NCBI GenBank assembly: GCA_965178125.1
Contig: OZ237755.1
Coordinates: forward strand, 372,001-436,000
Source of the DNA: Bilabrum cf. latius
Taxonomy: Eukaryota
DNA: 64,000 bases
Direction: 5' to 3'
Part shown: positions 15,609-43,854 of the stretch, in pieces
Numbering within the stretch: position 1 is the first letter of the stretch
Layout: every line of letters begins with the position of its first letter
Notes under the pieces: generated by a model
What the model was told of the DNA's origin: nothing
The model's database searches: none
The model's input: the letters and a program-made list of their open reading frames with translations, nothing else
Made by a program: the position numbers and the translations under genes

Positions 15609-17231
15609 TCACTATTTTTGCTTTCTCCTTGCCAGCGCAAGTGCCTTGGCCTTGGCAGCAGCGATGGCCCGTGCCTTGGCCTGCTCAGTAGCAGCTGGCA
15701 GTCTCGATTGGCCGGCGGGCGGCACCACACGGCCGTCGGACCGCAGAGAAGTAAAGTTGCTCCCTGCTGTGCCACTCAGCGGGTTTCGCGCAAGCATGCT
15801 CGCCTACACAGCCTGCGAGCTCGGCAGGACCGACGCCGCTGGCTACTGACCCGGACCCGAGACCCCGCTTTGCTGCGTTCCAGCCGGCACGAGGGGCTGC
15901 TCCCTACAAGTAGCAGCCGTGCGCATAGTCCGAGACGCGCCTTCCTACCTCAGCATGCGGCGCTCTGCTTCAGCAATTGCCTCCGCCACCCTCCACCCTG
16001 GCCTGCCCTGCAACTGCACGTGTGACCTACCGGAAGCAGTGCCTCCTCCACTGGACGAGCTGCTGGACGAGCTGCTGGACGAGCTGCTGGACGACCAGAG
16101 ACCGACAGCGCTGGGCCTGCTAGCACGCCTTAATAGCCCCAGTCTTCCCAGAGTGTCTTCTAACGACACTCCATTGAATGATTGTTGGGCCTCCTTGCCC
16201 AATGGCATGCTTGCACAGTCACCTGCCCGACCCCGCATCCCAGACGCCACCGAGCTGGAGTGCCCAGCCACGCCAACGGCTTCACCGGTAGCAGCACCTG
16301 CCAGTGGTGGCCGATGCTGCAGCGGCCGCAAGTGGTCTCGCAGGACAGGAAGCTCGTCCAGAGTCCGTCTGTGCGCCCCTTCCCTGTGAAACCTCCTCGC
16401 GCTGCGGTGCTCTCCTGCACCTGCTGCCGCCTGTTCCGCTCTCGTTCGCTCCGCAGCGTCCTGTATTGCCTCCTCCAGAGCTTTCTTCCGCGCAATGGCA
16501 TCTTCGGGTCTCGTCACCGATATGGCTGCACTCGAGGTGCCCTACAATGCAGCGTCGAACCAGGAGGGTGCTTCCAGCTTGGCGCGCAGATCATGGCGGT
16601 CTTCGCGTGCCTTGGCAGTAGCGGTGCTAGACGGCTGGCCTGCAGCCGTGGTGCTGTCGCCGCGTTTCAACTAGTAGGGTTTAGACACCGGCACTTGCTG
16701 GTTACTATCGCCTCCCACGAGCTCTGTCGTCTAGGCAGCACCCCATCGTCTTGATATAGCGGCATCTGTCCGCAATGCGTCGCGCATATCCTGTGCGACA
16801 CCCTCCGATCCAAGCGTGGCAGATCGACGAGTTATCGCGTTGACTAGCCATGAATCAGACAATCGTCTCTATGCAAGTTGCGCATGTATCTATACCAGTG
16901 ACTGAAATCTCCGCTCTGTTGCAGGCGAAGGACTCGGTTGCAGCCTGCTTGGCTTCGACTCCTACGCAACTTGAACCAACCTTGACGCCCAGTGCCCCGA
17001 CAGGGCATTTATAGAAGACAAAGTACAAGATGCATTGCGCAATGGTAGACCAACATTCCCACCTACCTCCACTGCGGCAGACCCCAAGTGGACTACGCCA
17101 CTGCCGGTTGGCTATTCCAGCTAATGATTGCTACGCTGGGTGCTAGGCTTGCTGCTCGGAATAATTGGGTTTGTGTTTTCATCGTGTTCGTCCCCCGACT
17201 CTGAAGAAGACGAATCGTAGGCCGCAAGCAT
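15609..17231 (-). CDS. Hypothetical protein; exons 17231-17067 and 16790-15609
   Basis: Begins MLAAYDSSSSESGDE. Phase-0 intron at 16791-17066 (GAG|GTAGGT ... CAG|GAT). The frame is open apart from TAGs and ends TAG-TGA (...RRKQKQ*). Contains a poly-Ser tract. Confidence 0.6.
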
Positions 17232-17382
17232 TCCTAATTTTGAGATCAAGCTTTGTAGTGTCCTCCGATCGTTTTAGGCGGATCATTGTAATATGCCTCA
17301 CCATCACCATTCCAGCGACCATTTTCGATTTGTTGACCGCTCCGTCCTCGAACTAGCCGTGGACGATAGGAACCGCGACAAC

Positions 17383-21520: not shown

Positions 21521-24500
21521 TCAACCAAGCACGAGCGTGACGTCTGTCAGCACCTGTCCATCACCACTGCAGCAGACAACAAGGGCCGCCTGTCGCGATT
21601 CCGGTCTCTGCTTTATTAGTTCGATAGCACAGGCCACCGACCGTGGCTGCCATGGCTGTGCGGGCGCCCCACCACCTGCTGCAGCTGCCCAGGCTTTCCC
21701 TTCAGAGATTTCATCCTCAATCGCTATCCGGGTGGCAGCGCCGATGGTCCGCAGTGTGGCCACGCTCGTGAAGGGCACACAAACGACTACAAGAGGGTGT
21801 CCTGATCGTCTAAGGGACCCAAACATGCTATCAACCGCCTGCCCCACAGCAGAGTCGGCAGTCAGATGGCACCTGCGGGTGACCACTTTGCCATTGTCGA
21901 TAATCACTTCATAAAATCCATCTGAGACTGGTGGAGACGTAGCGTGCTGCGCCACCGCCCCTGACCTAGCTTCGTGGGCCGAGGCCTCACGCAGAGTTCG
22001 GCTTGCGGCACGACGAGACACCGCCATGGATGCTGCAGTTCTCAGTGCAGATTCGCTGCTCGTGGTCAGGAGCACGCCCTGCAGAATAGCATAGTGCAAA
22101 AACTTGTCATCAGGTCCAGCTTGTTCGGACTGTGAAGTTCCTCGCAGGCCAGTGATGGCCGCAGCAGACAGCACAGGTGACCACACTGCTGCGTCGAGGT
22201 AGTCATTCCGAACGGCACCGACTGCGCGACCGATCCTCGCAGCTGCGAGCACAATCGATCTAGAAATGCCCTCCAGAACGAAGCCGGCTCCGGAGGTTGC
22301 AGAGCCACCCAAATCAAGACTTGGAATGCTGTCGTGTGCTTCTGCTCCGGATTCTCGATGATCCGGCAGCGGGGCGCACAGATGCTTCATGGTATCCGAG
22401 TCTGCCAGGTTGCAAGACGATGACATGAGGGAGATTGCCAGGTCAGCTTCCTTGATATCCGCGCCTGTCTCATGTATCCCAGAGGCGAGCTCTTCAACGA
22501 GCTCACCGATCGCGCATTCCTTGGACAGCGGCCCGACCCACTCTCCTGAGACCACGCTCGCTGGCACTGCTTGAACAAACACACGGTGCGTCGGCTCTGC
22601 AGGCTCAACCAAAAGAACGCTTTGTACAAACTAACCGGTAGCAGCAGAGCTTAGATCCACAGCTCCTGGCATCATTGGTGACCGCTTCGGCGAGCCGGAC
22701 AGGGCAGGGGATTTATGCTCGCCGTCAACCATGCGGATGCGACCATGGTCCAAAGTAGTGGTAGCAATCGCATGCATTCCTGCGCGCGTCGCGAAAAGAA
22801 GCGCATCAGAAACATCTGCAAAATGAGGATGCATGTACTCGGCATGGATTCCACTGGCCTGCAACCGAAATGCCACGGCCTGCCGATGTTGCATCGTCAG
22901 CAGTGAGGTTGCTCCGATTGTGCAAACTAACACCTCAGGAGAGCACTGTCTTGAAGACATACCGGCCACTGCTGCCCTCATCCTTTTCATCCAGTTGGTT
23001 GAAGCGAGCACCATCCCCGCCTCGCACTGCAGCGAGCTGTGGCTTCGCATCGCTCGCTTCGTTGCAAGATTGTGCACTGAAGATGCAACCTTATCCACAG
23101 CCAGTTGGATTCCAAACGCAATCGGGGATGGGCCGAAATCGCCTGGAACCCGTGCGCGAAGAACCTGACTGTCGTACCGACCGCCATTCACGAGACGCAT
23201 GCTATCCACAGGTCCGGCGGATAGTAGCCTTGCCGAAGCCAGCAGCGAACGCTGGCTTCGTTTCTTGCTGCTGAGCCGGCGCCGATCTGCTGGTGTTGGC
23301 GGCGCGGGGCCGACAGACACCTTGCCGCCGCCCTCCTCTGCAATGGGTAGCAGCGCTCCAATGACAGACGGCACTTTCATATGCGCTCGGCCAAGTCCAC
23401 CTCCGCCGCGACTCCGAACCGTGTTGGAGCGAGGCGCCCTTGCGCGTACCTCGCTGGCCACTCCCGCAACGCGGTCGCTGAATAGAAAAGTCTCTGGACT
23501 TGCGCGTGCAGCAGCATCTGTCTCTTTCATAAGCAAAGACGTGGCTTTACCTATTTCACCGGCGATCACATGGAATTGAATGCCGGTGGAAAAAGCACCG
23601 CTGGTGCTTGACAGGCCCAGGTCGAGCTGAGAGAAGGCAAGCGCCCTTGCCGTGGATAGAACGGCGGATGGAAGATGCACCTACGACTTGCTCCCGGCTT
23701 GCGACTTGCGGCTTCCTCCTGTGTGCCTGCCGACACTGGCTTGCTGAAGAAGCTTGCACGCTCTGGTCGCCACCTCTGACCCATACAAAGCGGCAGCACC
23801 AACCCAGGATCCACGCAGAACAGCCGAAACTGTGGCAGCAGCCGCTACAGCTGAAATGGTCATAGATTTCAAGCCTAAGTCTGTGGCTGCATCTGAGGGC
23901 ATGCCAAGCACACTCGCACTAACGGCTGGGTCGTCCCCGATATCTTGCCTGTGGCAGTCATGCATCACTCCTCGAAGACCATCCAAGCCTTCGATTGCCA
24001 TGCGGATCTGCTGGATAGATTGACTCACTTGTGGCCCTGCCACTCCAAGAAGCCCTAGAGGAGCAAGCCCTTTCGATGCGCCAAACCCATCGGAATGCGG
24101 AATTCTAACCCCAGGACCTGCCACCGCGCGCAGCATTGCATCCAGCGTGCCTCTAATTTCAAAGGCCCCTACGAGGAGCTGGATGCATCCCGACAAACGA
24201 ACGCGAGCAGCGTGCAGTCGCACGCCTAATAGTCCGAGTTCCGCCCTAAGAAGTTCCTCTCGCTTGGTTTGCTTGCCGGCTGCGGCCTATCTAGCAACCG
24301 CTGCTTGCTCAATTGGCTGCACTTGCAGGCCTTCCAGAACATCCGTCTACTACCTTTCTGCCGCTGCGCGCATTTTGCGCTGTCTTCGATTCTCTCGTCG
24401 TCGCTGCAAGCGGTCAGCACGTTTGCCTTTGCCCTGATTTCCCTTGCCCTGATTTCCGTTGCCCTTCCCATTCGCTTTGCCGCTGTTGGCAACTTTGGGG

Positions 24501-27500
24501 TCGCGCAATGGCACCGGTTTCTCGCCGCCGTCTTCCTTGCTAGACGAAGACTCCAACGCATGCGGTTCGAGGGTCTGCTTGAGCTAGTTTCTCTTGTTGC
24601 GATGCTCGTACTTGAGCTGGTGCACTGAACGAGCGAGGGTGGGCAGTTGCTTGCAGCACACCTGGTTGATGCGGTCTACCGCCAGCACGGGGCTGCTCGG
24701 CAGCTCAAAGAATGGCCGGATCATTGAAGCATCGGATTGCGACAACCCAAGCTTCCGAATCAGCACGCCCTACACTGCGCCCCAATCAATAGCATTAGAT
24801 CCAGACGCCTCGGAAGCTCCAGCACCAGGGGTACCTTCAGAATGCTGCGTCTGCCCAGACTTGGCTCTAGCAAGCCGGGCATCCTCTCGCAAGACTGCCA
24901 TGTGAGTTGCAGAGAGCAAAATGGACAGCTTGCTCCGCGCCTCCGCGGCTCTGACCTCGGTCTCGAAAGTGGGAACCCCGGGCGGTAGCTTTGTGCGACT
25001 AGGTGCATGCTCTGGAGCAGCCGCGGACACCCCGTCTTGTGCTGCGGTTTCAGCGCGGTCCAGCTGTGTCAAAGCCTCTCGAGCGTTCGGAACTGCAAAG
25101 ACTCCGCACATTTGGGCAATGCCGGCAGCCAGGTTGGTTGAGGACAGCCGGAGATACCACTCGCCGGTGGCATCCGAAGCGGCATCAGCTGCCTGTGCTG
25201 CGGCACTGATGACGTCACACGCAAGGATGCTGCTCTTGATGAGCTGCCCATTCGAGAGGAGAGTCTGCCGAAGTTGCTCGATCGAACACACGTCCGAACC
25301 ATCGGACGGTGCAGCCCGTTTCTAGCTCCCTCGGCGTTTCAAAGCTGAGTGACCATGGCTTGAGGATGCGGTGCTTGAAGAGCCTCCGGAAAACTACCTT
25401 GTTGAAGTGTGCTGCACCAACTGCCCGTCATCACCGGCGGCCAGTCCATTGAATGTCAAGTTAGTCCGCACGCGGTCCCAGTCGTGCTATCCTGGATGCA
25501 GGCCAAGCGCACACGCAGTCAACAGATCATCGATTCTAAATGCGCTGATTACATCGTCAAGGCTGCCATCGCCGTGCGAGGAAATGTGCTGCAAGATCCC
25601 AACTGCGATGCCTTCTTTTAGCTCAGTACCGTCCCAGAGCAAATCGTAGCAGAACTGTAGGTGCTCCTTGGGCTGACCTCCTTCCTTTCGGCGGCGGTAC
25701 ACCGTCCCAAGAGCCATGCGTCTCATCTGTGAAATGCCCTATCGACCGCAGTACCGAGCAAACGGGGTGGTCAGGTCCACGGGAAGCTGCACCAGGGTGC
25801 CTTCGTGGTCCAGAAACACTGCTGCGCTCTGTCCTGACGCAGCATCAGCACTGACAAGAGCATCGCTGATCGCTGCATCTCCAAACATAGCATCGTCGCC
25901 AGCACTAGATATTGCGCTAGCACCGGGTGGCCCATCCGCACCCTCGCTTTTCACGGGGCTTGAATCGCCAGGAGTGACAGTTCCGGCCCCCGACGCTGGT
26001 GAAAACCCCGCCTGTGGTCGCGCCTTTGCCAATGCAACGCTCCTCCTTTCAGTCAAGACTCTCATCTCAATCTCTTCGCGGCGCAGGACCTCAGCAAGTG
26101 GAGAGAGAGCAATGAGACCCTCCTCGCCGATCAGGTGCAGCAACTGCGACGATATGTTTGATGCGGTACCATCTGCTGACCTCACCAGTGCAGCTGCAGT
26201 GAGCGCTGACATGGGGGCATACCTTGGCAGCACGACGGCAGGCTCGCACCGAAGGGCGCCTCGATTTGAGGCGACGGTAGACAAAGCATCCACTACCAAG
26301 TCTTGGACCCTTTGCATCGTTAGCTAGGTCCAAGTCTACCCTCTGCCGCGAGCGGTCATGCCATTTGTCTCTTGCTCTCGCTCCATTGCAAGCAGCTGTC
26401 GCACCCCAGAGGCGGCTGCGGCCGAGTATCCCGATGCTGCGCCCGCCTGTGACAGCATGGAGGCCGCTCGACTGGAGGCACCACCTCTCGTGGAGGCGAG
26501 CTGCTGAACGAATCTCGAGCGCCCGTCGGCCGGTCTGCCGCCAGAAAGCAACTGAAAGCCGCTAATCTCGGGCTGACGGTCACGAACAAGCCTGTTAAGT
26601 GCACCCGTCGCAGTTGCGGGTAGGTCGTACGATAGATCCGTCTATTCTGCAGTAACCTACGAGAACAAGTGGTACATGAGATCAGATCGCAATTTGGAGC
26701 CAGGTTTGGACAGCGCGTTGACGGCATCCGCCAGATACGCCATTTCAACTTCTGGTCTTTCCGGCAAGGAGCTGTCCCCCAACAGCTGTCGTGCAGAAGG
26801 CCTGCTTTGAGGTGCTGCGCTCACCATCCTCAGTATGAGGTCTTGGGCCCTCCGCGGGACGTGCGACTGGCAGTCGGCCACGATGCAACCATTCCGCAGC
26901 TGCTCCAATGCGATTGCTCGCTCCATCCTTGTTTTAAAGGGCGGGCAAAAACACTCAAACAGGATGATGCCGAGCGCAAAAATATCCACCTTGGGCCCGT
27001 ACCCCTGCCGCCCCGCCCCCGAGCCTTCCGCCCCCAAATCCACGCCGCCGGCCTCCGGAGCCATGTATGCCAGCGTGCCAGCTCCGTGAGTGATTGTGGG
27101 ATGCGTTGCTCCCATCTCGTCGCCCATGGCATCTCCTATCGCCGCTTCTTCCAGTCGCTGAGACAGCAGCAGGTCACCCCCAGCGCCATCTGTCGAAGCT
27201 GAGCCGTCGAGTCGGTGACCTCCGCGGGTGCCGAGGGCAGCGGCAGCTCGAATAGCGCGAGCACGCACGCCGTCCAGCATCTGCTTGGATATCGCTGCCA
27301 CGGCATGGGAATTTGTGCCACCCCTATCAGGTGCATCGTGTGAACTAGTATCTCCGGGTGCTGACCGATGTGCGCTCACCTTGGCGGACTAGATTCTGTC
27401 GGTGGCAAGTCCAAAGTCGCCTAGTTTAACGACGAGGTTCTGTCCATTGGATCGACGACTGTCCCGAGATCGTCCGTGGCGATGCGACTTGGAAAATCCC

Positions 27501-29749
27501 ATGGCTACATCCGTTTGCTGCAAGAAAATGTTGCTAGGCTTAAGGTCTCTGTGGATCACGTTCTTGCCGTGCAGGTAGGCAAGGGCCTCGAGCACCTGGT
27601 GAAACAGAGACCAGATCAGAGCAGCGTCTTTGTGCAGCTTCGTGTCATCGATCACCTCGCGCATGGTCGCACCATTGCAGAATTCCATGGTGATGTAGAG
27701 GTATCGCCGCGCGGCATGCGATGCAGTCGCGCTCTCAGTGGATGCTGAATCCGTAGCACTCGGCGCATCGCCAGTGGCACCGACGCCTCGCGCAGGACGG
27801 GCGCTGAGCATGCTGTCTTCTGGGTTCTGCATCGAAACCAGCGAAGACGACGCACTGCCGCTTCCACCGAGTGTTGCCTGCTTTGCCTTTGCATCGCGGG
27901 CGGAAATCGGCGCGCCCGGGCCACCGCCACCAGAGTCGTCACCCGGACCGCTGGCCTCCACTGCAGGAACTTCAGCGAAAAGACCAGCTGCAAACTTCTT
28001 GAGCGAGTCATCAGGGCCCTTGTGGTCGCCAACAATAGGTAGTTTCTTTGTCTAGCCTGCTTGCTGCTGAAGCAGCAGACCCTCGCCGAGACCGGGCGTC
28101 CTGCCCCGTGAGGAGGAGGACCATCCTGAGGAGGCGTTGTCGTCGTCACCACTGCTGCTGTCACTATCGGATGAGTCCGAGTCAGACCCAGACTTCCCGA
28201 ATGATCCCGTGGAATCAGAATCGCTACCATCAGAATCGCTGCCAGATCCTGCGGTGCTATCGCTACTGTTGCTACTGGACTCGTCCCAAGCGGTAGACTC
28301 GGAAGGGTCTGGCTCACCCAGCGCTTCCTGTTTCGCGATTGCCTTGCCCGCATCGCTAAGACCTGTGCTTCTATTTGGGTCAGCATCAGCAGACTTGTCC
28401 GCAGCAGAATCTGCAGAGTCTTGTCTTGCCATCGATTGCGCGCCCAAAGAACGCCTTGACCGATGCAGCACAAGTGCGACTTCGCCATCGCTGCCACTGC
28501 TCGTGTCCGATTCAGAGCCCGATTGGCGCAACGTCGCATCCATCCCAGCTGCGGCACCAGAACCCGACCTTCCATCGTCCAGCACCGCCGCTGCTTGCTT
28601 TGCTAGCGGGCTCGATCTCTTGACACGTACCCTGTGAGGGGGCGCCCATTCCAGCCAAGCCTGGTAGTACCTCACGATATTGCGATGGAACAGCCTACTA
28701 AGGGTAGTCACCTCGCGCAGAATCTTGACATTGAGTCTGTCGTCGTCTGCTTCCAGCCTCACCCTCTTCACCGCGTACCACAGCCCATCGAGCCTGTTCT
28801 TTGCCTTGAGGACCCGCCCGAACCCGCCCTTGCCAAGCAGGGTGGCTCGGTGGTAGTCCGTCCGGAATCGATCACGCGCGTACTATCGAAAGGACTGCCT
28901 GCTCGATTTCGAATCGCCTGCACTGTCCTGCTCTTGCGGCCTTCTCCTCGAATCTGCCTCCAGTGGACGGGCCACAGCGAGAGCAGCAGCAATAGCCGCT
29001 TGCTCTGTGCCGGTAGCAGCCACGCCACGGCCTGATACATCTGTCCCGGTCTGCTTGGCTCCTGCGCTTGCCTGTCCGTATCCTTCGCCGGCAGTGCTGT
29101 CGGAAGAACCAGCGATCCGCAGCAGCCTCTCCCGCTCGCCGGCCCTGGCTCTCTGCTCAAGCCTTTCTTTCGCTGCGATGACGAGCCTTTTCTGGTGCTC
29201 TGCTGCCTTCAATCTAGCTTTTCCTTCTACTATGTGGTCTTCTTCCAGCGCTGCCTCTTGCTCCCTCCTGAGTGCATCCGCGCGCTCATCAAAGGCGTTT
29301 CGCTTTGGTGCCGCAGCCGTCGATGCCACGCCATCTTCATCGGAGACATCATCGTCCCACCGTGCCAATGCTGCCGATACCTCACTAAGAGCATCCAGTA
29401 CAATGGGGGCTTCAGGCTCTGCGCGCTGGTACGCGTTCTCCAAAGCCGAACGAGAGAAGCCTACCAGCCTTGTTTGCTATGTTTCGCTGAGACCGAATGG
29501 CCGCAAGGCTCTCTCAGCAACTGGAGGCCGCTATGGATCTATCGGATACTATTTAGGAAGCCTGATTCGGATGTGAGCTCCCTTTCGCAACCCAGTCGGG
29601 GTTGTCGCGGACACCAATACGCTGAACATTGCCTGGCCCCTCTTGTCCCGTCCCAAGTCCTCAAACTCCCCCTCTCCGCCATACACGGCGCCCACAGTTT
29701 CCATTTCATCTCTTTGCAATTCTACGCATCTTTCTACGCGTGCCTACAT
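21521..29749 (-). CDS. GCN2: eIF2-alpha kinase GCN2 (RWD - kinase - HisRS-like - C-terminal region), ~2742 aa; start approximate
   Basis: RWD ELQRDEMETVGAVYG..EFEDL..LPK*YP. Kinase LGKGGFGRV, YAVKRV, ILREVTTLSRLFHRNIVRYYQAW, LYITMEFC, HRDLKPSNIF, VKLGDFGLAT, GTLAYMAPE, KVDIFALGIILFE, PFKTRMER. HisRS-like FLDHEGTLVQLPVDLTTPFARY..GQPKEHLQFCYDL. Thirteen track ORFs share one frame and are separated only by TAG; ends TGA. Confidence 0.92.
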
Positions 29750-29917
29750 TCTAGGAGGGAAAATGAAAGGCATGGATTGGGAGCAAACGGAACGTTCGTT
29801 CTGCAGGAGTTCGTCGTACGCTGAGCAGAGCGCGAGACGAGCGCACGCATTGAATGGCACAACCTACATCTTCACGTAGATCTGAGGAACTTTGTTTGCT
29901 TGCGTAAGTTCATAGGC

Positions 29918-32268
29918 ATGGAACGTTTGCCAGGCTATCGAAGGTTCCGCATCGCACAAGCCGAGAGCGACTTGACGGTGCAGAAATTCAAGGATGCTCT
30001 TTCCGCGACCTATTCCGGTGAGATAGAACCAGCAGACTCAGTCTTATGGGTCACAACACTAAATTAAGCTGGCATGTGTGCTAAAAATGGTTGTAGTGCG
30101 CCCCAATTCTCACAGACTTGGACACTGATTGCATTTTGCACAATGGGGCCGCGCTGCAGCCACGCCTCGACATGCGGCTTCATGATATTGGTCTTGGAGC
30201 AGGAGAAGAGATTCACGTGCGTTGTTTAGAGCATACAGAGGACCGACCACCATCGGCTACTCTTCAGGTGCCAGCCGCAAAAGCACAATCCCCTGCTCCG
30301 TCGGCTGCGTAGGGTTCACCACACCCAGTTGATTTTGGAACAACGATCCGAGGAGAGGCTTCCAGACCCAACGATACGATGAGATCCAAAACTTCAAAAC
30401 TATCCGCATATTTTAAGTCTGGCGTCACGTCCAAACGTAGGCATGCATCGGCCGAGAACAACGGAGGGGGGGGGGGGCCGAGTCTCTCGGCGAGGGGCGA
30501 TGCACGCGACGGCCGTGCAGCCGCTTGGAAGGTATTTGCTGGTCCAGAAGGAGCGTTGATCGAGCCAGAAGGACCAAAATTACTGGAGGACGTTGATTTT
30601 TCGGCATCATAGGCTCATCGAGGCAGAGAACCACTTCCAGCGGAAGGCAAAGTGTCCAGCGTCTCCACCACTGCCCGGACGCAAGCTAGTTCGACGGAAT
30701 CCCGTGTACAGCCAGCACTGAAGGGTAGCAAAGTTTCGCAATTTGTTGTTGATTTTCCGGTTCGCAGCAGCATAACACCATCGGTGGTGCTTGCAAGCTC
30801 AAACTCCAGACACCAAAGTCGAACGGCCAACACGCGCTTACAGACCCACCGGTGCGTAACCGAGGCAAGCGTTGTCCCTCATGAGTTAACAACTAGGTCG
30901 GTGTCATTTCATCGGGAGGCTGTACCCGCCTCCAGCACCGACGTCTCCCCGACACATTCAGCAAGCTGGGCACGCGTCGGCGGTGGGCCACCTCTCGCCG
31001 CCCCTCAAATCTTGAGAAAGCACAAGACGTCAGTTGCTGACTTCGACTAGACCCCACATTTATTTTTGAGGCTAGATACCCCTCGCGCTAGGAGCTCGGC
31101 AGGGCCCGGCTGGCACGTATTTACGACGCTGCAGTCCGTTGATTCCGAGGGTCCCAGTGCGGCCCGATGTCGAAGCAACCTGTGGGCGCGAGTGTCTGCA
31201 GAATTTGCGAGGCGCATTGGAACGCCAGACGAAATTCTCCAATAGCAAGGGATCTCCGATGGTGACGGCGACTCGGTTGTTCTTGTCCCCGTGCTGTGCA
31301 GGGTACCCAAGATTGTGGAGGCGCGTCTTGTCACGCGGAGCGTGTTGCTTGCCGGTGCGGACGGCGAGCGGTAGCACCTCGGCTCGACCTCCTCGCCTCA
31401 TTCTGCTGCTTCATTGCAAGAACGAGCAGTTGCAGCGCCATCGTACGATGTGCCTGCGATACCGGGCCCGAGCACGTCTCAGTCGGGCTACTATCCCACT
31501 GTGCAGGAAGTTTCTCCCGCCCAGTCCAGCGCTTCGAGCCTTCGGGCTAGCCCGAAAACCATACCTTTCGGCAGCTCTTCTGGTGATTCGTACGAGCTGG
31601 GCAACCATCCGTTGGCATTGCTGTCACTACCGCGATCTAGTCAGACCGGCTATGTAGCAGCTCCCACAGGCACGACAAGCAGTACAGATATGGCGTCGGA
31701 CGAACCGAGCAGCACGCAAAGGTACGCCAAGGAAACTGCAAGCAGTCGCGGCACTTTCATCCCACCTATAGAGTCGGAACAAAGCATGGCGGCTGTAAGG
31801 CGATGCAGCGCGAGCGAACCGACTGGCCCGGTGGATAGAGAGCAAGCATCGTCCAGTAGTCCCGGGACGCCGGCCCCAGCTGGCAGCCACGGGCAATGGC
31901 TGCCTGTAGATGGCAGCCACATGGTGAGGCAGCCAGCAGCACCCCTATCTGCGTTCTCGCAACCCGCGGAGAGGCAGTATCTACGTGCCTCAGCCGCTGG
32001 GCCTTCGCACTACCAGTAGGTGTTGAGCGGGTCGGAGCTTACCCGCGACTTGCGCTAGCCCGGGGCCACCAGAGCACCGGCACGCAATGAGAGCGAGGTC
32101 GTGATGCCGGTTCAAGAGAGCAGTGCTCAAGAACACCATCCAATGGCACCGCAGATGGGCGTAGGTTTCAGCCATGGGTGGCGATCGGTGCGGGGTCCGA
32201 GCATACGAAGCGAAGGGTCAAAGGATTTCGTCCTGCGCCAAGTGCAGCGCAAAATGCCAGAGAGATGA
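29918..32268 (+). CDS. Hypothetical protein with N-terminal ubiquitin-like domain; exons 29918-30017, 30116-32268
   Basis: LTVQKFKDAL...ILHNGAALQP.LDMRLHDIGLGAGEEIHV resembles a UBL fold. A phase-1 GT-AG intron at 30018-30115 joins the halves. ORFs starting at 30118, 30379, 30652 and 31414 share one frame via TAGs; TGA at 32266. Confidence 0.6.
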
Positions 32269-32399: not shown

Positions 32400-34493
32400 T
32401 CATCGTTCCCTGTGTGAAGATGCCTGCACTGCGGCTGCTGCAGCTCTAGCGGCGGTCGCTGCTGCCGAGGCTGCTTGAGCCGGGGTCGCAGGACTGCGCA
32501 TGTCTGGAGCCACCGATGCAAAGCCATGCTGCTGATGCGCATACGCATGCACTGCCTCGTCCACGGCCGCACTAGTTTGCGCAGCTGATGTGCTCCCTTG
32601 TGTCGCAGCCATGCCCGTACTGCCTGCTAGAGACTGATAGCTCCCCTGACCAATCGTACCGATGCCATCAACCAGATGCTGCGGCTGGGGGTCGCTGCCT
32701 GGGCCCCGAAACGCTCGCATCTGCTAGGCAAGCACAGATGACTGGCCAGACTGCAAAGCTCCGACTGCCCGCATTCTTGGTGCGCTAGCCGGCAATCCGC
32801 CAAAAGACCCCTGTCCTTGTCCTGCCGCCACCGCAGACGCTGCTGCTCGCTGCGCACTCATGGACTGCATGGGTGTCCGTGCCTGCGCACTCTTGCGCTT
32901 CCTGCCACGCGTTGTCTCTGGCAGGCCATCCCGCCTGAATGCCTCAGCTAGCTCCGACTCCGCGGCGGCCTTGGCCATTGCGGGACTGACCTTGTGCACC
33001 CTCTCCAGATGCCTCTAGTAGTTTGCTTTCCTGCTGAACGACCGGTCGCAGTCCTTGCACATCAGCGTGGGGGCCCTGAGGTGCTTGGACCGGCGGTGCC
33101 GCATCATGCTGCCCTACTGCGTGAAGCGCATGCCGCATTCCGGGCACGAGTACCGCCCGAGCTGTGCGGGCTGCTTCCCGGACTTGCGGGGCACCACCGC
33201 TGGCGGTCTTGCACTGGATGATGCCGGCCCGCCCACGCCTGCACCGGGATGAGCCGATCCATGGAGAGCAGCAGTGCCAGCACCCTCTATCAATGGCCCG
33301 CTCTACAACCCAGGCGGTTGAAGGGTTGCCAAAGAGCCAGAGCTTCCTTGGCGTGCGTCCGGCCTGCTGTGATGCATGGGCGAACCGCTGGGCTTGCCAG
33401 AGGCAGCGGCAGCAACTGCGGCAGCAGCGGCAGCGGCCGCGGCGGCCGCACTCTGGTTCTGGTCTAAAGACTGCTGGTCCTTCCTCGTCGCCTAGCTGTC
33501 AGATGTCTGCCCAGAGGTTGAAGATGCGTGCGGTACCATGGTGGGGGGCAATCCCAGCCCAGACGCGATGGTGCCACCGGCCGATGCCGAAGAGGAAGAG
33601 GAGGACAAGGACGATGGCTGGGAGGCAGAGGAGCCGGATGACGGTGTTGCAAGGGGATGCGTGCCAACAGGACCCGGGAGCTGCTGCAACGCAGGACCAC
33701 GGCCAGACCTGCGAGTGCTCGTTGCGGCTGCTGCGGCTGCTGCTGCGACTGCCGCTGCATTGATAGCCCCTGGGCTTTGCGCTGCTGATTCCGCTTCGGG
33801 ACGATGTGGCCCCGGGTGGCTGCTCATCGGCCGTGCGTTACCATGCACCAACTTCTTGTGCGCAGAGAGATGGCTACTCTGGTAGAATCTCTTGTGGCAG
33901 ATGTCGCATTCATGGTCTCGAACTCGATCGTGCACAGTCTTTACATGCGTCTTGAGATCGCCTTGCCGCGAAAATCGCTTTGGGCACTGGGAGCACTGGT
34001 ATTTCCTCTCTTGCTAATGGACTGCCTTAAAATGACGCAATAGATTGCTCCTCCTGGTGAAGCTTTTCGTGCACATGGTGCACTGGAGTGACTTGGAGTC
34101 GGGCAATGGCGGAACCTGAGACGAGCCGTCGTCGTCGACAGCGGCCACAAGTCGGCTGCCGCTAGGGGGTTGATGCCCCCCTGCCGCCCTAGATCTACTA
34201 CTTGCTGGCATTGCATGCTTACGCGAGAGGCCTGCGTCCCTCTGGTGGGCTGCTGCTGCCTCGGCTGCTACCGCTGCCGCAGCTCGGGCTGCTGCAAACG
34301 CCCCAGACTGCTGTTCAACCCTAGCTCGCTTGCTGGCTTGCTACAATGGCTATGAAACATTACTGTTTGACTATCTATGCGTCGAGTTTCGAGCAGCCTC
34401 GCTGAGAACGTCGAGTCCCTCCATGTTTTCGTCGCGACCTCTCTTTGCGCCGGCAAACAGCGCTTCTCGCACAGCCTCCCCGTTAATGCTCAT
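32400..34493 (-). CDS. C2H2 zinc-finger transcription factor (3+2 fingers); 5' end uncertain
   Basis: Fingers CTMCTKSFTRRSNLLRHFKAVH, CSQCPKRFSRQGDLKTHVKTVH, CDICHKRFYQSSHLSAHKKLVH, CPECGMRFTQ*GSMMRHRRSKH and CKDCDRSFSRKANY*RHLERVH. Ends TGA at 32400. The frame stays open upstream of ATG 34493. Confidence 0.85.
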
Positions 34494-35395
34494 GTTGTGT
34501 AAAGCAGTGGCTTCGCGATTATCGGGTGAAGCAATGCTCTCAGCTTGCCCTTCAACGGGTGGATAGACTCCGGTGAGGTGCTAAACGACCGGAGCTGCAT
34601 CAAAATCAAGACTAGCAGGCTATGTGCACGTTATCCACCAAGCCCAGGGCACCAGGCTGCGAAGCTTGCAAAATAGCCACAGCTCAGCATGCGACCAAAG
34701 TTGTGATGGGATCATAAGACAACCAATCTTGCTGTTCTCCTGTGCAGCTGTTAATGAATAATGCAATCGTAGACCACCGTCTGCCCATCGACAAGCCAAC
34801 CTCCTCTGCCATGGTTGCGCCGATGGCCACCAACATCAGGCAGTCGCTGTGTGCTGCCTCGAAATGCTCACGGGGCACAATATATGTGCAGTGTGGTTTA
34901 CCTCTCCCAAGCCGCGCGCGAGCAATCGTGCGAATCGAACGTGCTCGCAAACGCGGCACCGGCGCTGATGCCTTCCGACACACCCGGTACCAAATCAAGA
35001 AGGCTGCCAGTTAGCCAGCTCCCCGCCCCACTACACAACGACTGCGTGCCAGAACAGGCCGCATGGCATCGGTCTTGTGCGTCCAACAACTAGAGCTACG
35101 GCTGCATGCCAGCCAGCCGTCTCCTGCTGGCACGGACTCGGAACCCACGCTCGCTTCAAGCAATTGGTGTGCTCGTCTTGCCCACATCGTCTCTGTCGCC
35201 ATCCTTGGCCGGGCAGCTGGGCGAGAGATCGGGGCTGCACCGCGTCAGGGATTGCTCGTGCCTCTCACAGAACTGCCCGTTGTGAGAGATCATCAGGCGT
35301 GTCTATGCAATGCAATGCAATGCATGTTCATGTTCTCGGCGCAATGCTATTCCAGCCCAGTGGATGGATGAGAGAGCAGCGGTGGCCCGCCCCCC

Positions 35396-36549
35396 TCACA
35401 GGAAGTAGTCGGGAGTTCGCCTGGTCACGGTCATCTCTCCCTTGCGGGGAGCATACTCGTACTGCTGAAACTTGTAGGCGAGCGAGTCGTCCAGCTCAAG
35501 GATGGCTGCCTTGTTGCCGCAGCGGTAGCAGTAGTTGGGGGCGGAGAACACGGTGACCACGTTTCTTTCGTGTGCCCAGTTGAAGCCCTCCATCACGAGC
35601 TGGTGCGCCCTCGCCACTAGCCGCAGGTTGTTCCTGTGGTTGAACTGCATAGAGATGTCCTGCCCGAAGGTGTATCCCGCCCCGCGGGGGCTCACGCCCC
35701 ATCCCTACCTGTCGTCTGGGTCGGACCAGAGCAGGTCGCACATGGGCCCCTCGTGCGGCACCTCTTGCACCCGGTCCAGCGAGCGGACTGCGTCCAAGGT
35801 CGCGATCACGGGGCTCAGCCCGCCGTGGGGACAAAACACCTGGTTCTCCACCAGAGCAGACAGAGGCATGTAGTCGAACAAGTCAGTGTACATCTTCCAA
35901 ACCGTTGCAGACCCATACTTGCGCAGGCACTCGTCGTAGAATCCGTACACCTGGGTAATCTGCCTGGATTCGTGATTCCCACGCAGCACCGTGATCCTGG
36001 TGGGAAATCGAACCTTAAGGCAAACAACCAGCGTCACAGTCTCGACCGAATAATAGCCCCTGTCGACGTAGTCTCCCAAAAACAAGTAGTTGGTGTCCGG
36101 TGGATCTCCACCAATCCTGAAGAGTTCCAGCAAGTCAAAGAACTGACCGTGGACATCGCCTACCAACGTGACTGGCGCGCGTACGGGCTGCACATTGGGT
36201 TCTTCCATAAATATTGCTCGCGCCTGCGGTGGTGGCACACGGTCGTGATCGCATAACACATCACAGGGGTGGTGGGTCCTCCGTCGGCTGCAAGATCTCG
36301 ATGGCAGGGCAGCCGGTCGGCACCCAGCTAGCGTTTGGACCGCATTTTAGGTCTCATGCAAGCTTTAATCCTCACCTTATCGCAGAGCTGCCGAACCTAG
36401 GCTTCCGAGAGGGGTTTGCACTTCTTCAGCTAGTCAATCCAAGCATCCACATCCGACGTCGCACGGGACTTTTCTCCAGCTGTTCCAGCGGCAATTTCCT
36501 TATGACTGGATGGTGCAGTCGCACTACTGCTTGATGACACCGCTGCCAT
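35396..36549 (-). CDS. PPP2CA: Protein phosphatase 2A catalytic subunit; exons 36549-36376, 36223-35396
   Basis: [66 protein letters not shown] and the diagnostic C-terminus [12 protein letters not shown]. Intron 36224-36375 (AAG|GTGAG..CAG|GCG). Three in-frame TAG. Confidence 0.97.
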
Positions 36550-36770
36550 GCTACCTCAAAGGATAACTAGGCAATGGGAGCCGCAATCGATCTTTCTCCC
36601 CTGGCTCCGAACTCGATGCGTATTAATCAGATTCATGGAATCAAAGTTGCGTGTATGTTCAGGCTGGCGACCGTTGGCGAGATTTCATCTCCAGTCACAG
36701 TTACTGGTATTCCGGAGCTTTGTACCACCAAGGCAGAAGGAATTCTAGACTAATATCTCTCCTAGGAATC

Positions 36771-39700
36771 ATGTCATCCGGAAACGCTGAGACAAGAAGG
36801 GAGCTGTACGCAACGTGCAAGGAGGGATCGGAGCTGGGCGCCGTGCGCGACTTTGTGTCAGGAATTCGGCTTTCCAAGTGGAAGGATATACTGGAAGGTG
36901 TTTCTAAACCAAAACTAGGACAGTTGTTCGGAATTCTGCACGGGCACGTTTCTGCTGTCGCAGAGCAGGATGAGTTTGAGGACGCAAACGCAAACTACAC
37001 GGAATCTGGAGAGACCGACAGCGAGGACCTGCTCAAGAACCTTATGTTCTTCCGAAGCACCGCAGAATTTGCCCTGGCTCACCTTATTTCTTGCTCCTCC
37101 GCGCGGTAGATCGCCCTAAACGCGTTGGACACGCTGCAGGTCCTTCACGACACCATCTTCACGCTCGGTGGGCCGGAAGGCGAGGCCGCTCGGCAGGCCA
37201 TCCTGCGAGCCTGCGTGCAGGCGTGGGAAATCGGTGATGGGATCGCAAACACACTCATGGTGCAGTGCCTCCCCGCCCTCCTTCTCATCGCTGTGAGCCC
37301 AGACGCCACCGCCGCGGACTTCAAGCGCCTCTGGCAGGTGCGCGCCTCCCTGGGCCTCTTCGACCTCGAGGACGAGTCCTCCCAGTCGCTTAGGCAGCTG
37401 TGTCTGCAGGCGTTCCTCTCGCCCAAATTCCTCGCGACGAAGGAGCGCCGAAGGTTCCTCGAACACGCCCTGGGGGAAGACCCCGGGCTCTGCGAGGACG
37501 CATTCGAGGCCGTGCTGGGGGCCCTACCGGGGGCGAGGGCGGCCACGCTGGATGCGTACGGAGACATGGTGTTCAGGGCGTGGGTGCGCGTGCATGCCGT
37601 GGCACAGACGGGCGATGCGGGTGCGAGGGCGGCGCGGGACTGCATCGAGCAGTTCTGGATCGAGGGGCTGGCACACAGGGCCGCAACGGCTGCGAGGCCG
37701 GCCACGTTCTCGGCAGCTCGGAGGGTCCTGCGGGCGTGCCTCGTGGGGAACAAGCAGCACGCAGGGGCGGATGGCGCCCTCTGGAGGTGCTACGAGCCCG
37801 CGCTGTGGGCCTGCCTCCGGGCCACCAACGGGCAGGCCCGTCTCCAGGCCCTGCTTCTTCTCCTCGACGCCTTTCCCATGGGCGATGCCTCCGAGGGCAG
37901 GGCCTCTCACGATGCGTGCATGAAGACCCAGTTCAAGGCCGTGACGAGTGCTCTCAGGGACGACAGCCCGGCGGTGCGGGCCGCCGCGGTGGAGGGTGCA
38001 TGCGGCATCCTGGGCAAGTTCTGGGAGCTTGTGCCGGCCCACACGGCCAAGAAGCTGCTGGCCCGGCTGATGGGGGAGTGCGCCAGGGATGCAGCCTCCA
38101 CTGCAGTGAGGGCGGCGGTGGTGAAGGGCCTCGGCTTCGTACTAGACAACGTGCTCAGCCACGAGGTGCTCAAACAGGTGCTTCCGTCCATCGCAGCCCT
38201 GCTGCACGACCGCTCCGACAAGGTCCGAGCAGAGGTGGCAAAGCTGCTGCGGGCCGTCCAGGGCCTCAGGACCATGTCCTTCGCCGACATCGTGGACCCC
38301 GAGCAGGTGCTCGCTCGCCTCGCGCTGGACGCCGCCGTCCCCGAAGTCGCGGCGGAGCTGTCGGGCATCTTGATTCCGAGTCTGTTCCCCGAGGACGCGA
38401 GCGTGTCTGAGCTGCTCTCGCGCACGGTCAAGTGCATGAAGACGCACCCAGCCGCGGGGCTCGCGTTCTACGCCAACCTGCACCACCACGTGGCGCCCAC
38501 GAGGGTCTGCCGGCTGGTGCTGGTCGTGCACAAGGCCATCAAGAAGGCCTGTGCGGGTGCTGCGCCCGCACCGGCGCGCCGGGCCAGCGGCGGAGCGGCT
38601 CTTGGGTCGCTGGCAGCCGCCCCTCGTGCCGGGCAGAAGCGAGGGCGCGACGACGACGACGACGGGGAGGACATGGAAGAACAGGCAGAGGAAGAGCCTC
38701 GCAGGCGCGGCAAGCTCCGCGCGGACAACACCATCCTTATGGCTTCTTTGCTCCGCGTGGCGCACGTGGCCTGGGCCTCTGTGGCGGACGAGATGCTCCC
38801 GCGCGCTGGGCAGGGCGACTCGATGGCCAAGGCCCGGAGGAGGATGCTGGAGGCCTGGGGAGGGCCATTCCTCGGGGCCTGCGCCGGGGCCATGCTGGGG
38901 CTGGGGAACAGCGAGGAGGAGGAGGAGGCACGCGCGCCGTGGGACTCCTCCCGGTGCGCCGTGCTCGCGTCGCTGCTAGGGATTGCAGGCCTGATGCCCG
39001 AGCCAAAGGCGGGCGCAGGACCTGCGAGCGGAGCGGGTGCCGGCAAGAAGGGGCGCCCGGGGAAGCGCAAGGGTAGGCGCGGGGGCAAGAAGAGCAAGAC
39101 TGCCGAGGGAGAGGACGAAGACGAGGCGGGACCGGCTGCCGCTGCCGGCGTCACCGCCCAGGAGGCGATGACCGGGCTGGTTTGGCCCGCGTTCGAGGCC
39201 GCGGCTCGCATCGTCGGAGAGACCGAGGGCATGTTTCAGACCGTGGAGGCGAACGGACCCGCCGCCACGCTGGTCGGAGCAGCCGTCGAGCTTGCAGTGG
39301 CCAGGGACCAGACGGAGGAAGTGGCCGCTGCAGCAGTGAGCGGCATGGCTGCGGGCACCGGGGCCGCATCGGGCGCCGGTGCCGGCGCGGCAACTGGCGC
39401 GGGTGCCGTTCGCATGCCCCCTGCAGTGGCCGTGCTGTGCATCGAGCGCCTGATCGGCAGTGCAGCCGACCCCAAGCAGCTTCGGGAGACCATCCTGCCC
39501 GCCCTGGACCCCGCCCTCTCGTCCCTCCGGACACACGCAGAGGCCGCCGCATCCAGGCGACAGGGGGCTTCGTGGGCCAGCGCGCGGGCGCTGTGCAGCG
39601 CGGGGATGGGCCCCGCCGTGGCTGCTGCAGCCATCCGCGCTCTGTGCAGGGCCGCAGCAGTGGACGCCCTTGGTCCCCAAGCGGATGCCACTAGTTCCGA

Positions 39701-41282
39701 TGCACCCCCCTCCTCTTCTTCCTCGTCCTCGTCCTCGTCGGCTGCTGCTGCAGGCACAGCTGACGCCGCCAAGGGCTCCATGGAGCAGAAGCGACCGGGC
39801 AGCACCTCGTGGCTGAGGCACGCGGTGGATGCTGTGCTGGGCGGGTGCCTGCCCCTGCTCGCAGGCATGACTGCGAGGACCAAGGAGACCGGCTTTATCG
39901 CGGCAGCGGACGAGGCTGCCGTGGCGCGGGCGGTCTACGACTCTGCCGCGGTGCTGGTCTCTGCGCTCTCCGACTGCGCCGGGCTGGGAGCGTGTGTCGA
40001 GGACGCGGCTCTGGCGGTGCGGGTGCTGGACTGCCCCGACGTTCTGGATCTGGTGGCCAGCGTCCCGCCGCAGCCGGTGGAGGAGCTTCGAGAGGGGGTG
40101 GATGCGGGCAAGCTGCGGTGCGCCTTTGCGGGCGATGCTGGCATCGATGAGGACGAGGACGAAGAGGAATAGGAGGAAAACACGGGCGCCGGGGCTCTTG
40201 CCTCCCTCGGGAAGAACAAGGCGGGCAGGAAGATCCGAGCAGGAAGGCGCGGAAGCGGGAAGCCCAAGGCCCGCACGCGTGCCCAGGTGACGAGCGCGCA
40301 CCGCCCCCACCTCGCCGCCTTCGCACAGAGGCTGTGCTACAGGCTGGCCGTGGCCGCTCTCGCGCCCCCCAAGACCAACCCGGCCTTCCGCTAGGCTTCC
40401 TCTTCGAGCGCCAAGGCGGCTGCCTCTCTTGCCGCCGCGCTGGTTGTGTGCCCTGGGGCTGGGTGCATCGCACCCACCGGCACCACCGCCGCAGTCGCCT
40501 TTGCCTTGGGCACACCGGACAGCGCCGCGGCCCGGGCCCGGTCGGGTTGGCACTCCACTGTCGCCCTGCACGCCAGGAAGGGGGCCTTGGGCGCGCTGGC
40601 CAAGGAGGCAGTCGTGCGGCTGCTCGAGCAGGTGGAAGCTAGCGGCGTCGGGGAACCTGTTGTGGTTCCGCAGGCGGCCGCGGAGGGCGATTCGGATGGG
40701 GGTCGAGTGGTGGCAGGGGAGCCCGGGGCCACCGGCACGATGGGACTGGCACCGGCGGGGCGCGTGCTCCTGGGCGCCTTCCTGGGTGGGGCAGGGGATG
40801 ACGAAAGCAGAGGGGTGGCGATCGCCCAGGCTGTGGGGGAGGCGGCCGCGACTCGAGGGGTGGCGCTTGGCAAGGGCGCGGGCGAGGCGGCGCCTGCCAG
40901 TGGTGCAGGCTCTGCATCCAGCTCAAGCGCACCCGCGGCCGCATCTGATGGAGCTGTACCTGCTGTTGCTGCTTCAACCACTAGCCCGGAAGTGCAGCAG
41001 GCGTGCATGGCACTGCTGCGCGCTGTGGGAGCCGATGCACCAACGGCGGGCGTGTCGGCTGCCCTGGCAACTGCTTCAGGAAGCCAGGCAATGCAAAGTG
41101 CTGAGCTACCAGAAGAAGAGGGAAAAGACAGCAAGGGTGATGGTGGATTCGACGATGCCGTGAGAGGCGGGCTCAGGGCTGCGGCGGGCTCGGGCTAGAC
41201 TGCTCCCATGGCCGCGAGCAAAATTGCCACCGAGCAGGTGGCCATGGCCCGCGACGGTGCGGTTCCATCTGCTGGTATTTGA
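36771..41282 (+). CDS. NCAPG2: Condensin II non-SMC HEAT subunit CAP-G2 (~1503 aa)
   Basis: YEPALWACLRATNGQARLQALLLLLDAFP, QFKAVTSALRDDSPAVRAAAVEG..ILGKFWELVP, RDAASTAVRAAVVKGL..VLDNVLSH and LLHDRSDKVR. TAG at 37107, 40170, 40391 and 41196; TGA at 41280. Confidence 0.88.
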
Positions 41283-43470: not shown

Positions 43471-43636
43471 CAAAAAATGTACTGATTTGGCAGAATATCC
43501 CAACACAGCTGGTCTTGATAGCTATCTAGACTAGACCAGCCATGCGCGAGCCGCAGTGTTTTGTGAGTGTCACTCAATCGCACTCCATGTCATTTTATAG
43601 TCAAATTAAATATTCAAAATCATGACTTGCCGACAT

Positions 43637-43718
43637 GACAGCATGCCAGAGTGGTTATTGGGATTGACTAGAAATCAATTGTGCTTTGCACGCGCAGGTT
43701 CGAATCCTGCTGCTGTCG
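43637..43718 (+). tRNA. tRNA-Ser (anticodon AGA)
   Basis: Acceptor GACAGCA/TGCTGTC plus discriminator G. Anticodon arm ATTGA-CT AGA AA-TCAAT. Long variable arm GTGC-TTT-GCAC. T arm GCAGG-TTCGAAT-CCTGC. TTTT just downstream. Confidence 0.93.
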
Positions 43719-43854
43719 TCTCCCTTTTGGTCCGGCCTCGATATTTTCCAATTAACAATCTTTTGGTTTGCATACAACGACTCCAATTTTAGAGCTCAGG
43801 CAAACTACATATAAAGTATTGTAAGCAACCACGTATCAATCCTAGCCGGTTTGC

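Follow-up and report, generated by a model that had tools for sequence, protein, structure and literature searches.

The three in-frame TAG codons in the gene for the PP2A catalytic subunit (PP2Ac) are very probably sense codons of a functional and expressed gene, belonging to a nuclear code that assigns UAG to glutamine, with UAA and UGA kept as stops. The evidence comes from the stop codons of all long reading frames in the window (the entire 64-kb stretch of DNA analyzed), from the codons found opposite TAG in relatives of a neighboring GCN2-like gene, and from spliced contigs of PP2Ac itself.

Use of TAG, TAA, and TGA in the window

Thirteen long open reading frames (ORFs) of the window, comprising 18,374 codons, contain 151 in-frame TAG codons and neither TAA nor TGA, whereas reading this DNA in its two off-frames gives 3.0 TAA and 17.8 TGA per 1000 codons; judged against these off-frame rates, the in-frame TAGs are beyond chance. 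Reading through TAG yields stop-to-stop frames of up to 3060, 2838, and 2339 codons, and no large gene in the window lacks in-frame TAG, the highest number in one ORF being 26. TAG makes up 151 of the 977 TAG, CAG, and CAA codons of the 13 ORFs (15.5%). UAA and UGA are absent from the ORF frames and still end translation: nine of the 13 long ORFs terminate with TGA and four with TAA, the numbers becoming 10 and four when one further ORF is included (n = 14). Many of the ORF products have Pfam domains (among them kinase, kinesin, SNF2/HARP, DDI1, and condensin II); the proteins encoded are a kinase resembling GCN2, a kinesin with a C-terminal motor, two helicases (one SMARCAL1-like and one other of SNF2 type), DDI1, a subunit of condensin II, and a zinc-finger protein of the C2H2 class. 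All-against-all blastp of the 13 ORFs returned only a weak helicase-domain match, and no paralogues in which TAG could be compared with CAG. The GC content of the window ranges from 55 to 71% and is mostly about 60%, the genes are tightly spaced, and introns are scarce.

These counts also bear on the possibility that the code is ambiguous, TAG meaning Gln within genes and stop near their 3′ ends, as in Condylostoma or karyorelict ciliates. TAG is somewhat scarce near the ORF ends, with two codons observed against 5.7 expected in the last 50 codons of the 14 ORFs, and the ORF ends were set by TAA or TGA with TAG read through, so that an earlier TAG stop would be missed. However, the shortfall is small and derives from 14 genes, and the ORF at 15609–17273 has TAG as its final sense codon with TGA directly next to it. 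Furthermore, the PP2Ac, kinesin, and DDI1 frames stop at TGA or TAA shortly after conserved C-terminal domains (in DDI1, at a TAA three codons past the UBA domain), and the other UAG-only lineages examined in the relevant part of PMC11687900 show no dual use of the codon. We consider an ambiguous code unlikely.

As for the decoding of UAG as Gln, analogy with other UAG-only systems, as far as they are described in the relevant sections of PMC5304391, suggests that UAG would be read by a tRNA-Gln with the anticodon CUA, and that the recognition of UAG by eRF1 may be lost or weakened. The same sections point out that a tRNA reading UAG but not UAA must have the anticodon CUA, which differs by one base from that of tRNA-Gln(CUG) and does not pair with UAA. 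A tRNA search combined with Rfam found no tRNA with a CUA anticodon in the 64-kb window, where the sole tRNA is Ser(AGA). This result would also fit a system that has no dedicated suppressor tRNA, in which the near-cognate tRNA-Gln(CUG) reads UAG and eRF1 is without UAG recognition, but a single window samples very few tRNA genes. Moreover, the share of TAG among Gln-type codons and its number per ORF given above imply that efficient decoding is needed, and those other eukaryotes with UAG as Gln for which tRNA genes are reported in PMC5304391, within the part that treats them, have tRNA-Gln(CUA). Near-cognate decoding appears quite improbable, and a tRNA-Gln(CUA) is the preferred candidate.

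Structure of the PP2Ac gene

The PP2Ac gene is located at 36549–35396 on the minus strand and consists of two exons encoding 333 amino acids. Exon 1 (36376–36549) begins with the ATG at 36549 and has 58 codons, with TAG at amino acids 40 and 51; its translation from 36549 to 36376 reproduces the exon 1 string of the initial annotation, including these two stops. The phase 0 intron (36224–36375; 152 nt, GTGAGG..CGCAG) is supported by both the sequence and the spliced contigs described below. Exon 2 together with the stop codon spans 35396–36223, of which the coding part (36223–35399) comprises 275 codons, as delimited by translation, Pfam, and human alignment. The stop codon TGA (35396–35398) lies immediately 3′ of the conserved C-terminal ...TPDYFL.

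The solved human PP2Ac-alpha (2ie4_C, 309 amino acids) served as the reference for the alignment. Amino acids 30–58 of exon 1 align with human residues 6–34 without gaps, having Gln opposite both TAGs; site 1 (36430–36432, amino acid 40) faces Gln16 and site 2 (36397–36399, amino acid 51) faces Gln27, at the spacing of 11 codons that the initial annotation had recognized. Site 3, also placed correctly there, is the TAG at 35705–35707 (amino acid 231), located between the DPDDR and GWG motifs and opposite human Gly207. Exon 2 aligns with residues 36–309 of human PP2Ac-alpha, likewise without gaps (E-value, 4e-155), matches the Pfam family Metallophos (PF00149; E-value, 2.5e-42), and shows over its whole length 78–85% identity to other PP2Ac; no frameshift, TAA, or TGA interrupts the gene. 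The translation contains GDVHG, GDYVDRG, and GNHE, in agreement with GDxHG, GDxVDRG, and GNHE, the metallophosphatase motifs of the PPP family. PP2A is the best-scoring type, human PP2Ac-alpha reaching 518 bits versus 295 bits for PP1 and 230–333 bits for calcineurin, and the C-terminus (...RRTPDYFL) is a PP2A-type tail. The PP2Ac gene must be read through, as the final third of the catalytic domain, like the conserved C-terminal tail, is encoded downstream of the TAG at amino acid 231.

Amino acid assigned to TAG

The residues occurring at the three TAG sites of PP2Ac were counted in the best 120 PP2Ac homologues, and sequence-weighted frequencies as well as log-odds were calculated. The column of site 1 is dominated by Gln (63 of 120; His 12, Ser 8, Lys 7, Arg 6, Thr 6, and 8 gaps; weighted frequencies, 0.47 for Gln and 0.18 for His), and the bicosoecid Cafeteria roenbergensis protein P0403 also has Gln at this position. 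At site 2, Gln (42) and Glu (41) are almost equally frequent, followed by Asp (17) and Asn (5), with weighted frequencies of 0.31, 0.40, and 0.13 for Gln, Glu, and Asp, respectively, and P0403 has Asn. The column of site 3 is composed mainly of Cys (62; weighted, 0.47) and Gly (30; weighted, 0.21), with Thr 9, Ser 8, and a single Gln, and P0403 has His. When the three sites are combined, the log-odds amount to 2.71 nats for Gln versus 1.35 for Glu, an approximately fourfold preference. Thus the column frequencies, which had been proposed as a check of the assignment, agree with it at site 1, are split between Gln and Glu at site 2, and are those of a Cys/Gly position at site 3. By itself, PP2Ac is weak evidence for Gln: it favors Gln and speaks against Leu, Tyr, and Trp, but it does not decide between Gln and Glu, two of the three columns not being dominated by Gln. 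The description of PP2Ac as the clearest single-gene evidence was accordingly overstated, and the GCN2-like gene is clearer in this respect.

The GCN2-like eIF2-alpha kinase is encoded about 6 kb from PP2Ac by an ORF of 2838 codons on the minus strand (21521–30037), which contains 23 in-frame TAGs. A protein search with 1200 residues of this GCN2-like sequence retrieved short proteins of close relatives. One of them (P0252, 98% identical) ends one residue before the window TAG at amino acid 1127, and another (P0253, 95% identical) ends one residue before that at amino acid 385, as expected from a standard-code gene caller if those TAGs are shared. Public protein collections already hold such TAG-ended fragments. 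P0252 is the single member of its 90%-identity cluster, which means that the corresponding fragment of the window itself is absent from the cluster. P0402, a cluster mate of P0253 with about 95% identity, has Gln at the window TAG of amino acid 187, and the more distant P0254 (54% identical) has Gln at amino acids 883 and 1127 and Leu at amino acid 1132.

A further relative, P0255 (74% identical), led through a metagenome scan to its DNA, the contig L001; a separate scan queried with the window's own GCN2 found no relative. L001 is 3436 nt long with a GC content of 57.5%, and one of its frames is open for all 1144 codons with 11 TAG, no TAA, and no TGA, whereas the other five frames contain 2–7 TAA and 10–27 TGA. 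An open frame interrupted by TAG only indicates that the related organism has the same code. In the codon alignment of L001 and the window GCN2 (1072 codons, 59% identity), the 10 aligned window TAGs are opposite CAG four times, CAA twice, and GAG, TAC, CGC, and AGT once apiece; of the 11 TAGs of L001, six are opposite window CAG, four are opposite CGG, ATG, AAC, and CGA, respectively, and the last falls in a gap. Hence TAG stands opposite CAG or CAA at 12 of the 20 aligned sites, and a count this high or higher has a binomial probability of 9e-13. At the sites whose flanks have at least 10 of 16 residues identical, Gln is found in nine of nine; the eight pairings with other residues (Glu, Tyr, Arg, and Ser in L001, and Arg, Met, Asn, and Arg in the window) have flanks with only 2–7 identical residues. 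As a control, 40 sites with window Gln codons were compared, and 20 of them face Gln or TAG, a rate equal to that of the TAG sites. None of the 43 Glu, 31 Lys, 100 Leu, 140 Ser, 13 Tyr, and 6 Trp codons of the window that are aligned is opposite a TAG of L001.

Altogether, Gln codons of relatives have been found for the GCN2-like TAGs at amino acids 187 (29477–29479), 883 (27389–27391), 1127 (26657–26659), 1132 (26642–26644), and 1433 (25739–25741), and for those at amino acids 1238 and 1548, all on the minus strand within 21521–30037. TAG and the codons CAG and CAA are thus exchanged for one another between the window organism and two related organisms. A single TAG column, that of amino acid 1127, is also conserved over larger distances, with Gln in 39 of 76 sequences from a set of 154 distant homologues, while several other TAG sites of GCN2 are variable in distant homologues. 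A word search with GCN2 gave 11 matches, too few of which spanned TAG sites. At the level of sequence comparison, we regard the clear answer given by the GCN2-like gene and L001, namely that TAG is read as Gln, as decisive. The conclusion of the initial annotation that the residue is Gln rather than Leu, Glu, Tyr, or Trp is thus upheld, with its support coming mainly from outside PP2Ac.

The TAG sites in two other genes of the window are neutral in this regard. In the SMARCAL1-like helicase, the columns contain Asp/Glu, Ala, Lys/Arg, and Asn/Ser among the 120 homologues listed, most of which are from vertebrates, and the single TAG of the kinesin is opposite Leu, Pro, or Arg in a variable loop of the solved structures. 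None of these residues is Gln, but the helicase and kinesin columns are variable ones viewed over great distances, with none conserved across phyla, and are compatible with Gln without lending it support.

It is very unlikely that TAG is a sense codon for another amino acid, such as Glu (compare Blastocrithidia and the ciliate PL0344), Leu (compare the rhizarian exLh), Lys, Ser, Trp, or Tyr. The Glu frequency at site 2 of PP2Ac, the single window TAGs facing GAG and TAC in L001, and the Leu of P0254 at amino acid 1132 of GCN2 are in line with such assignments, but they are outweighed by the 12 Gln pairings between the window and L001, by the uniform presence of Gln where the flanks are well conserved, by the Gln of P0402 at amino acid 187, and by the lack of any Glu, Lys, Leu, Ser, Tyr, or Trp codon of the window opposite an L001 TAG. 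Also, site 1 of PP2Ac has Glu in only one and Leu in only two of the 120 homologues.

Transcription and splicing of PP2Ac

Four sequencing runs (X1, X5, X6, and X7) were compared with the stretch 34900–37100 around PP2Ac. In run X1, the stretch is colinear within a 27.6-kb contig, which is DNA and may be the source of the window's own sequence. In contrast to this DNA contig, X5 and X6 from one study and X7 from another each contain one PP2Ac contig of 1647–1741 nt, in which the sequence is joined at 36222/36375 with 152 nt skipped, the borders being CT..AC on the plus strand and hence GT..AG on the minus strand. None of the runs is recorded as RNA; from the spliced and transcript-sized contigs, we infer that X5–X7 are RNA. 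The gene next to PP2Ac is found in separate contigs with a different depth in these three runs. The X5 and X6 contigs include a 5′ untranslated part (36550–36587, minus strand), where 36587 is the end of the contigs and not a mapped 5′ end, and the 3′ untranslated part covers 34900–35395 (minus strand), with the contigs continuing 127–206 nt past 34900, the edge of the examined stretch.

The X5–X7 contigs have no letter differences from the window anywhere, including all three TAGs. As the spliced contigs keep every TAG, mini-introns hidden at these codons are excluded, and so is dominant RNA editing there. The PP2Ac gene is expressed, as is evident from the spliced contigs, and the concern that this copy could be silent, with a TAG-free PP2Ac expressed in its place, is answered by the TAG-keeping contigs in X5, X6, and X7. 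X5 and X6 also contain another PP2A-like contig of diverged sequence (390 and 453 nt; about 215–220 in depth), which matches the gene only at the conserved stretches 35508–35563 and 35711–35744 and has a depth above that of the PP2Ac contig; it is either a paralogue or a gene of another organism.

The idea that a TAG-free copy is the functional one and that the TAG-bearing PP2Ac represents a pseudogene or results from an error of assembly or sequencing, for which this second PPP-family transcript of the same or another organism could be invoked, has a negligible probability in view of the transcription and correct splicing in three runs of two studies without differing letters, the lack of any frameshift, TAA, or TGA in the gene, the identity of exon 2 to other PP2Ac, and the TAGs carried by 13 other large ORFs and by the orthologous gene of the related organism (L001).

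Phylogenetic position of the organism

The best match of the window PP2Ac is P0006, which is labelled as Symbiodinium sp. KB8 and is 85% identical over exon 2. At 90% identity, P0006 clusters with four accessions of Cafeteria roenbergensis; a Cafeteria-like PP2Ac thus bears the name of a dinoflagellate. Among named proteins, the PP2Ac of Cafeteria roenbergensis (P0403, 313 amino acids) is the closest, with 80% identity over 310 columns, and both proteins have in common FCPHGG and a 12-letter motif, which are unusual. In contrast to the window gene, P0403 is annotated as full-length without an in-frame stop and has Gln, Asn, and His at the positions of the window's TAGs. In a quick maximum-likelihood tree of 66 rows (each 295–340 amino acids long, with P0006 left out), the window PP2Ac and P0403 form a sister pair, whose common branch is long and has an SH-aLRT support of 100. 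As judged from this quick search with one gene, the organism apparently adjoins the bicosoecid stramenopile Cafeteria roenbergensis. The best distant matches of GCN2 are from a mite, an oomycete, fungi, and an amoebozoan, and give no placement. The GC content, tight gene spacing, and scarce introns of the window fit a Cafeteria-like flagellate.

Comparison with known genetic codes

According to the surveys in the corresponding parts of PMC11687900 and PMC5304391, UAG only is reassigned to Gln in Iotanema spirale, Protocruzia tuzeti, Hartmannula sinica, and Trochilia petrani, and PMC11687900 lists, within the same part, UAG-only reassignment to Leu in one rhizarian and some ciliate MAGs, and of UAG to Ser in Scotinosphaera. 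A change of UAG while UAA stays a stop is rare in these surveys, being represented by Iotanema, a few ciliates, the rhizarian (Leu), and Scotinosphaera (Ser) (PMC11687900; PMC5304391).

Iotanema spirale (Metamonada, Fornicata) resembles the window organism in that only UAG is reassigned, to Gln, with UAA and UGA serving as stops (Panek et al. 2017, PMC5304391). Retention of UAA as a stop there breaks the usual UAA–UAG coupling, and a T32G replacement in the GTS motif of its eRF1 has been proposed as the cause of the lost UAG recognition, as the section of PMC5304391 on this organism describes. However, Iotanema belongs to an unrelated supergroup, and its primary stop is UAA (same section of PMC5304391), in contrast to TGA ending 10 of the 14 ORFs in the window. 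Hartmannula sinica, Trochilia petrani, and Protocruzia tuzeti have the same codon table (NCBI table 15) with TAG widely used as a sense codon, and the part of the report that deals with them gives no evidence of dual TAG use (McGowan et al. 2024, PMC11687900). These are ciliates with mostly UAA stops (PMC11687900), whereas the window is compact with a high GC content (about 60%), and the PP2Ac encoded in it groups with that of a stramenopile.

Codes in which UAR specifies Gln (NCBI table 6) occur in many ciliates, hexamitin diplomonads, ulvophycean green algae, Streblomastix, and Amoeboaphelidium, as listed in the pertinent part of PMC11687900. They share with the window the change from stop to glutamine, presumably via mutated tRNA-Gln genes, but TAA is also Gln in these codes, whereas in the window it is found in none of the 18,374 codons and ends four of the 13 ORFs. 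In Amoebophrya sp. ex Karlodinium veneficum, UAG is probably Gln as well, and unedited in-frame stops are present in essential transcribed genes, as far as the relevant portions of PMC6394959 and PMC12005148 relate. This syndinean alveolate is AT-rich and, as described in those portions, also has UAA and UGA in frame, whereas the window has TAG only. A code of the Amoebophrya type, in which all three stops are sense codons, was rejected for the window, where only TAG is in frame and the DNA is GC-rich.

Our literature search, which had little coverage of subscription journals, found no report that a stop codon has been reassigned in the nuclear code of a bicosoecid or any other stramenopile; the runs containing this DNA date from 2025, so that a description may exist. 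The code in which UAG alone is changed to Gln is already known, and it is probably found here in a lineage for which none has been described. We tentatively suggest, with somewhat less than even confidence, that the window represents an undescribed or unreported clade of heterotrophic stramenopiles related to bicosoecids in which only UAG has changed to Gln and which includes at least two lineages, one consisting of the window organism and its 95–98% identical relative, and the other of the L001 organism (about 59% identity over GCN2). If so, this would be the first change of a nuclear code in stramenopiles and a further independent uncoupling of UAG and UAA, in a GC-rich genome that uses mostly UGA as its stop.

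Gene calling with the standard code fragments nearly every gene of this organism. Each new independent case of UAG-only reassignment is a test of the proposed mechanistic coupling between UAA and UAG. If the proposed position holds true, a bacterivorous flagellate of a culturable type, close to the standard-code Cafeteria, would provide a good comparison, in which the joint change of tRNA-Gln(CUA), glutaminyl-tRNA synthetase, and eRF1 could be followed.

In-frame TAG codons and the records of relatives

The GCN2-like kinase gene (21521–30037, minus strand) contains a tandem in-frame TAG TAG at residues 1896–1897 (24346–24351, minus strand). Three fragments of this protein in public collections (P0252, P0253, and P0402) come from close relatives of the window organism. 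These fragments open with an internal or alternative start codon, and their last residue is the one immediately preceding a TAG: gene calling with the standard code has chopped up genes written in the variant code. With 2838 codons, as compared with ~1600 in the matching fungal and animal GCN2 proteins, the reading frame is unusually long, and its kinase domain is interrupted by large inserts rich in Ser, Asp, and Gly.

The highest TAG density in the window, 12 in 554 codons, is found in an ORF at 15609–17273 (minus strand), for which no Pfam match was found. Its final sense codon is itself TAG, followed at once by a TGA stop, with a further in-frame TAG located six codons downstream. The fewest TAGs (4 in 1551 codons) are those of the condensin II subunit ORF, within which the GC content rises to 71% (38001–40000), as against about 58–62% elsewhere.

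Gene packing and RNA genes

The 3′ untranslated region of the PP2A catalytic-subunit gene (PP2Ac), about 600–700 nt long and varying by contig, extends into the next gene downstream on the minus strand, a C2H2 zinc-finger ORF (32400–34835), where it covers the beginning of the stop-to-stop frame (34695–34835). The genes are therefore very tightly packed. A single tRNA-Ser(AGA) gene (43636–43720, plus strand) lies between DDI1 and a 3060-codon ORF, and no other RNA genes were found in the 64-kb window.

Identity of PP2A-like records and sequencing runs

The best match to PP2Ac, P0006, was deposited as 'PP2A4 [Symbiodinium sp. KB8]', and is at least 90% identical to proteins of Cafeteria roenbergensis; it is probably a flagellate contaminant of the dinoflagellate assembly of Symbiodinium sp. 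KB8. A second PP2A-like contig, of higher depth than that of PP2Ac, occurs in X5 and X6, two sequencing runs of one study. It matches PP2Ac only at two conserved motifs (35508–35563 and 35711–35744), between which lies a stretch of equal length but diverged sequence, and is either a paralogue (of the PP2A, PP4, or PP6 type) or a gene of another organism. Sequence identical to that of the region surrounding PP2Ac (34900–37100) is present in X5, X6, and two further runs (X1 and X7); the runs belong to three studies and carry three different organism names on file. The window organism may be a cohabitant or contaminant in the cultures of other organisms.
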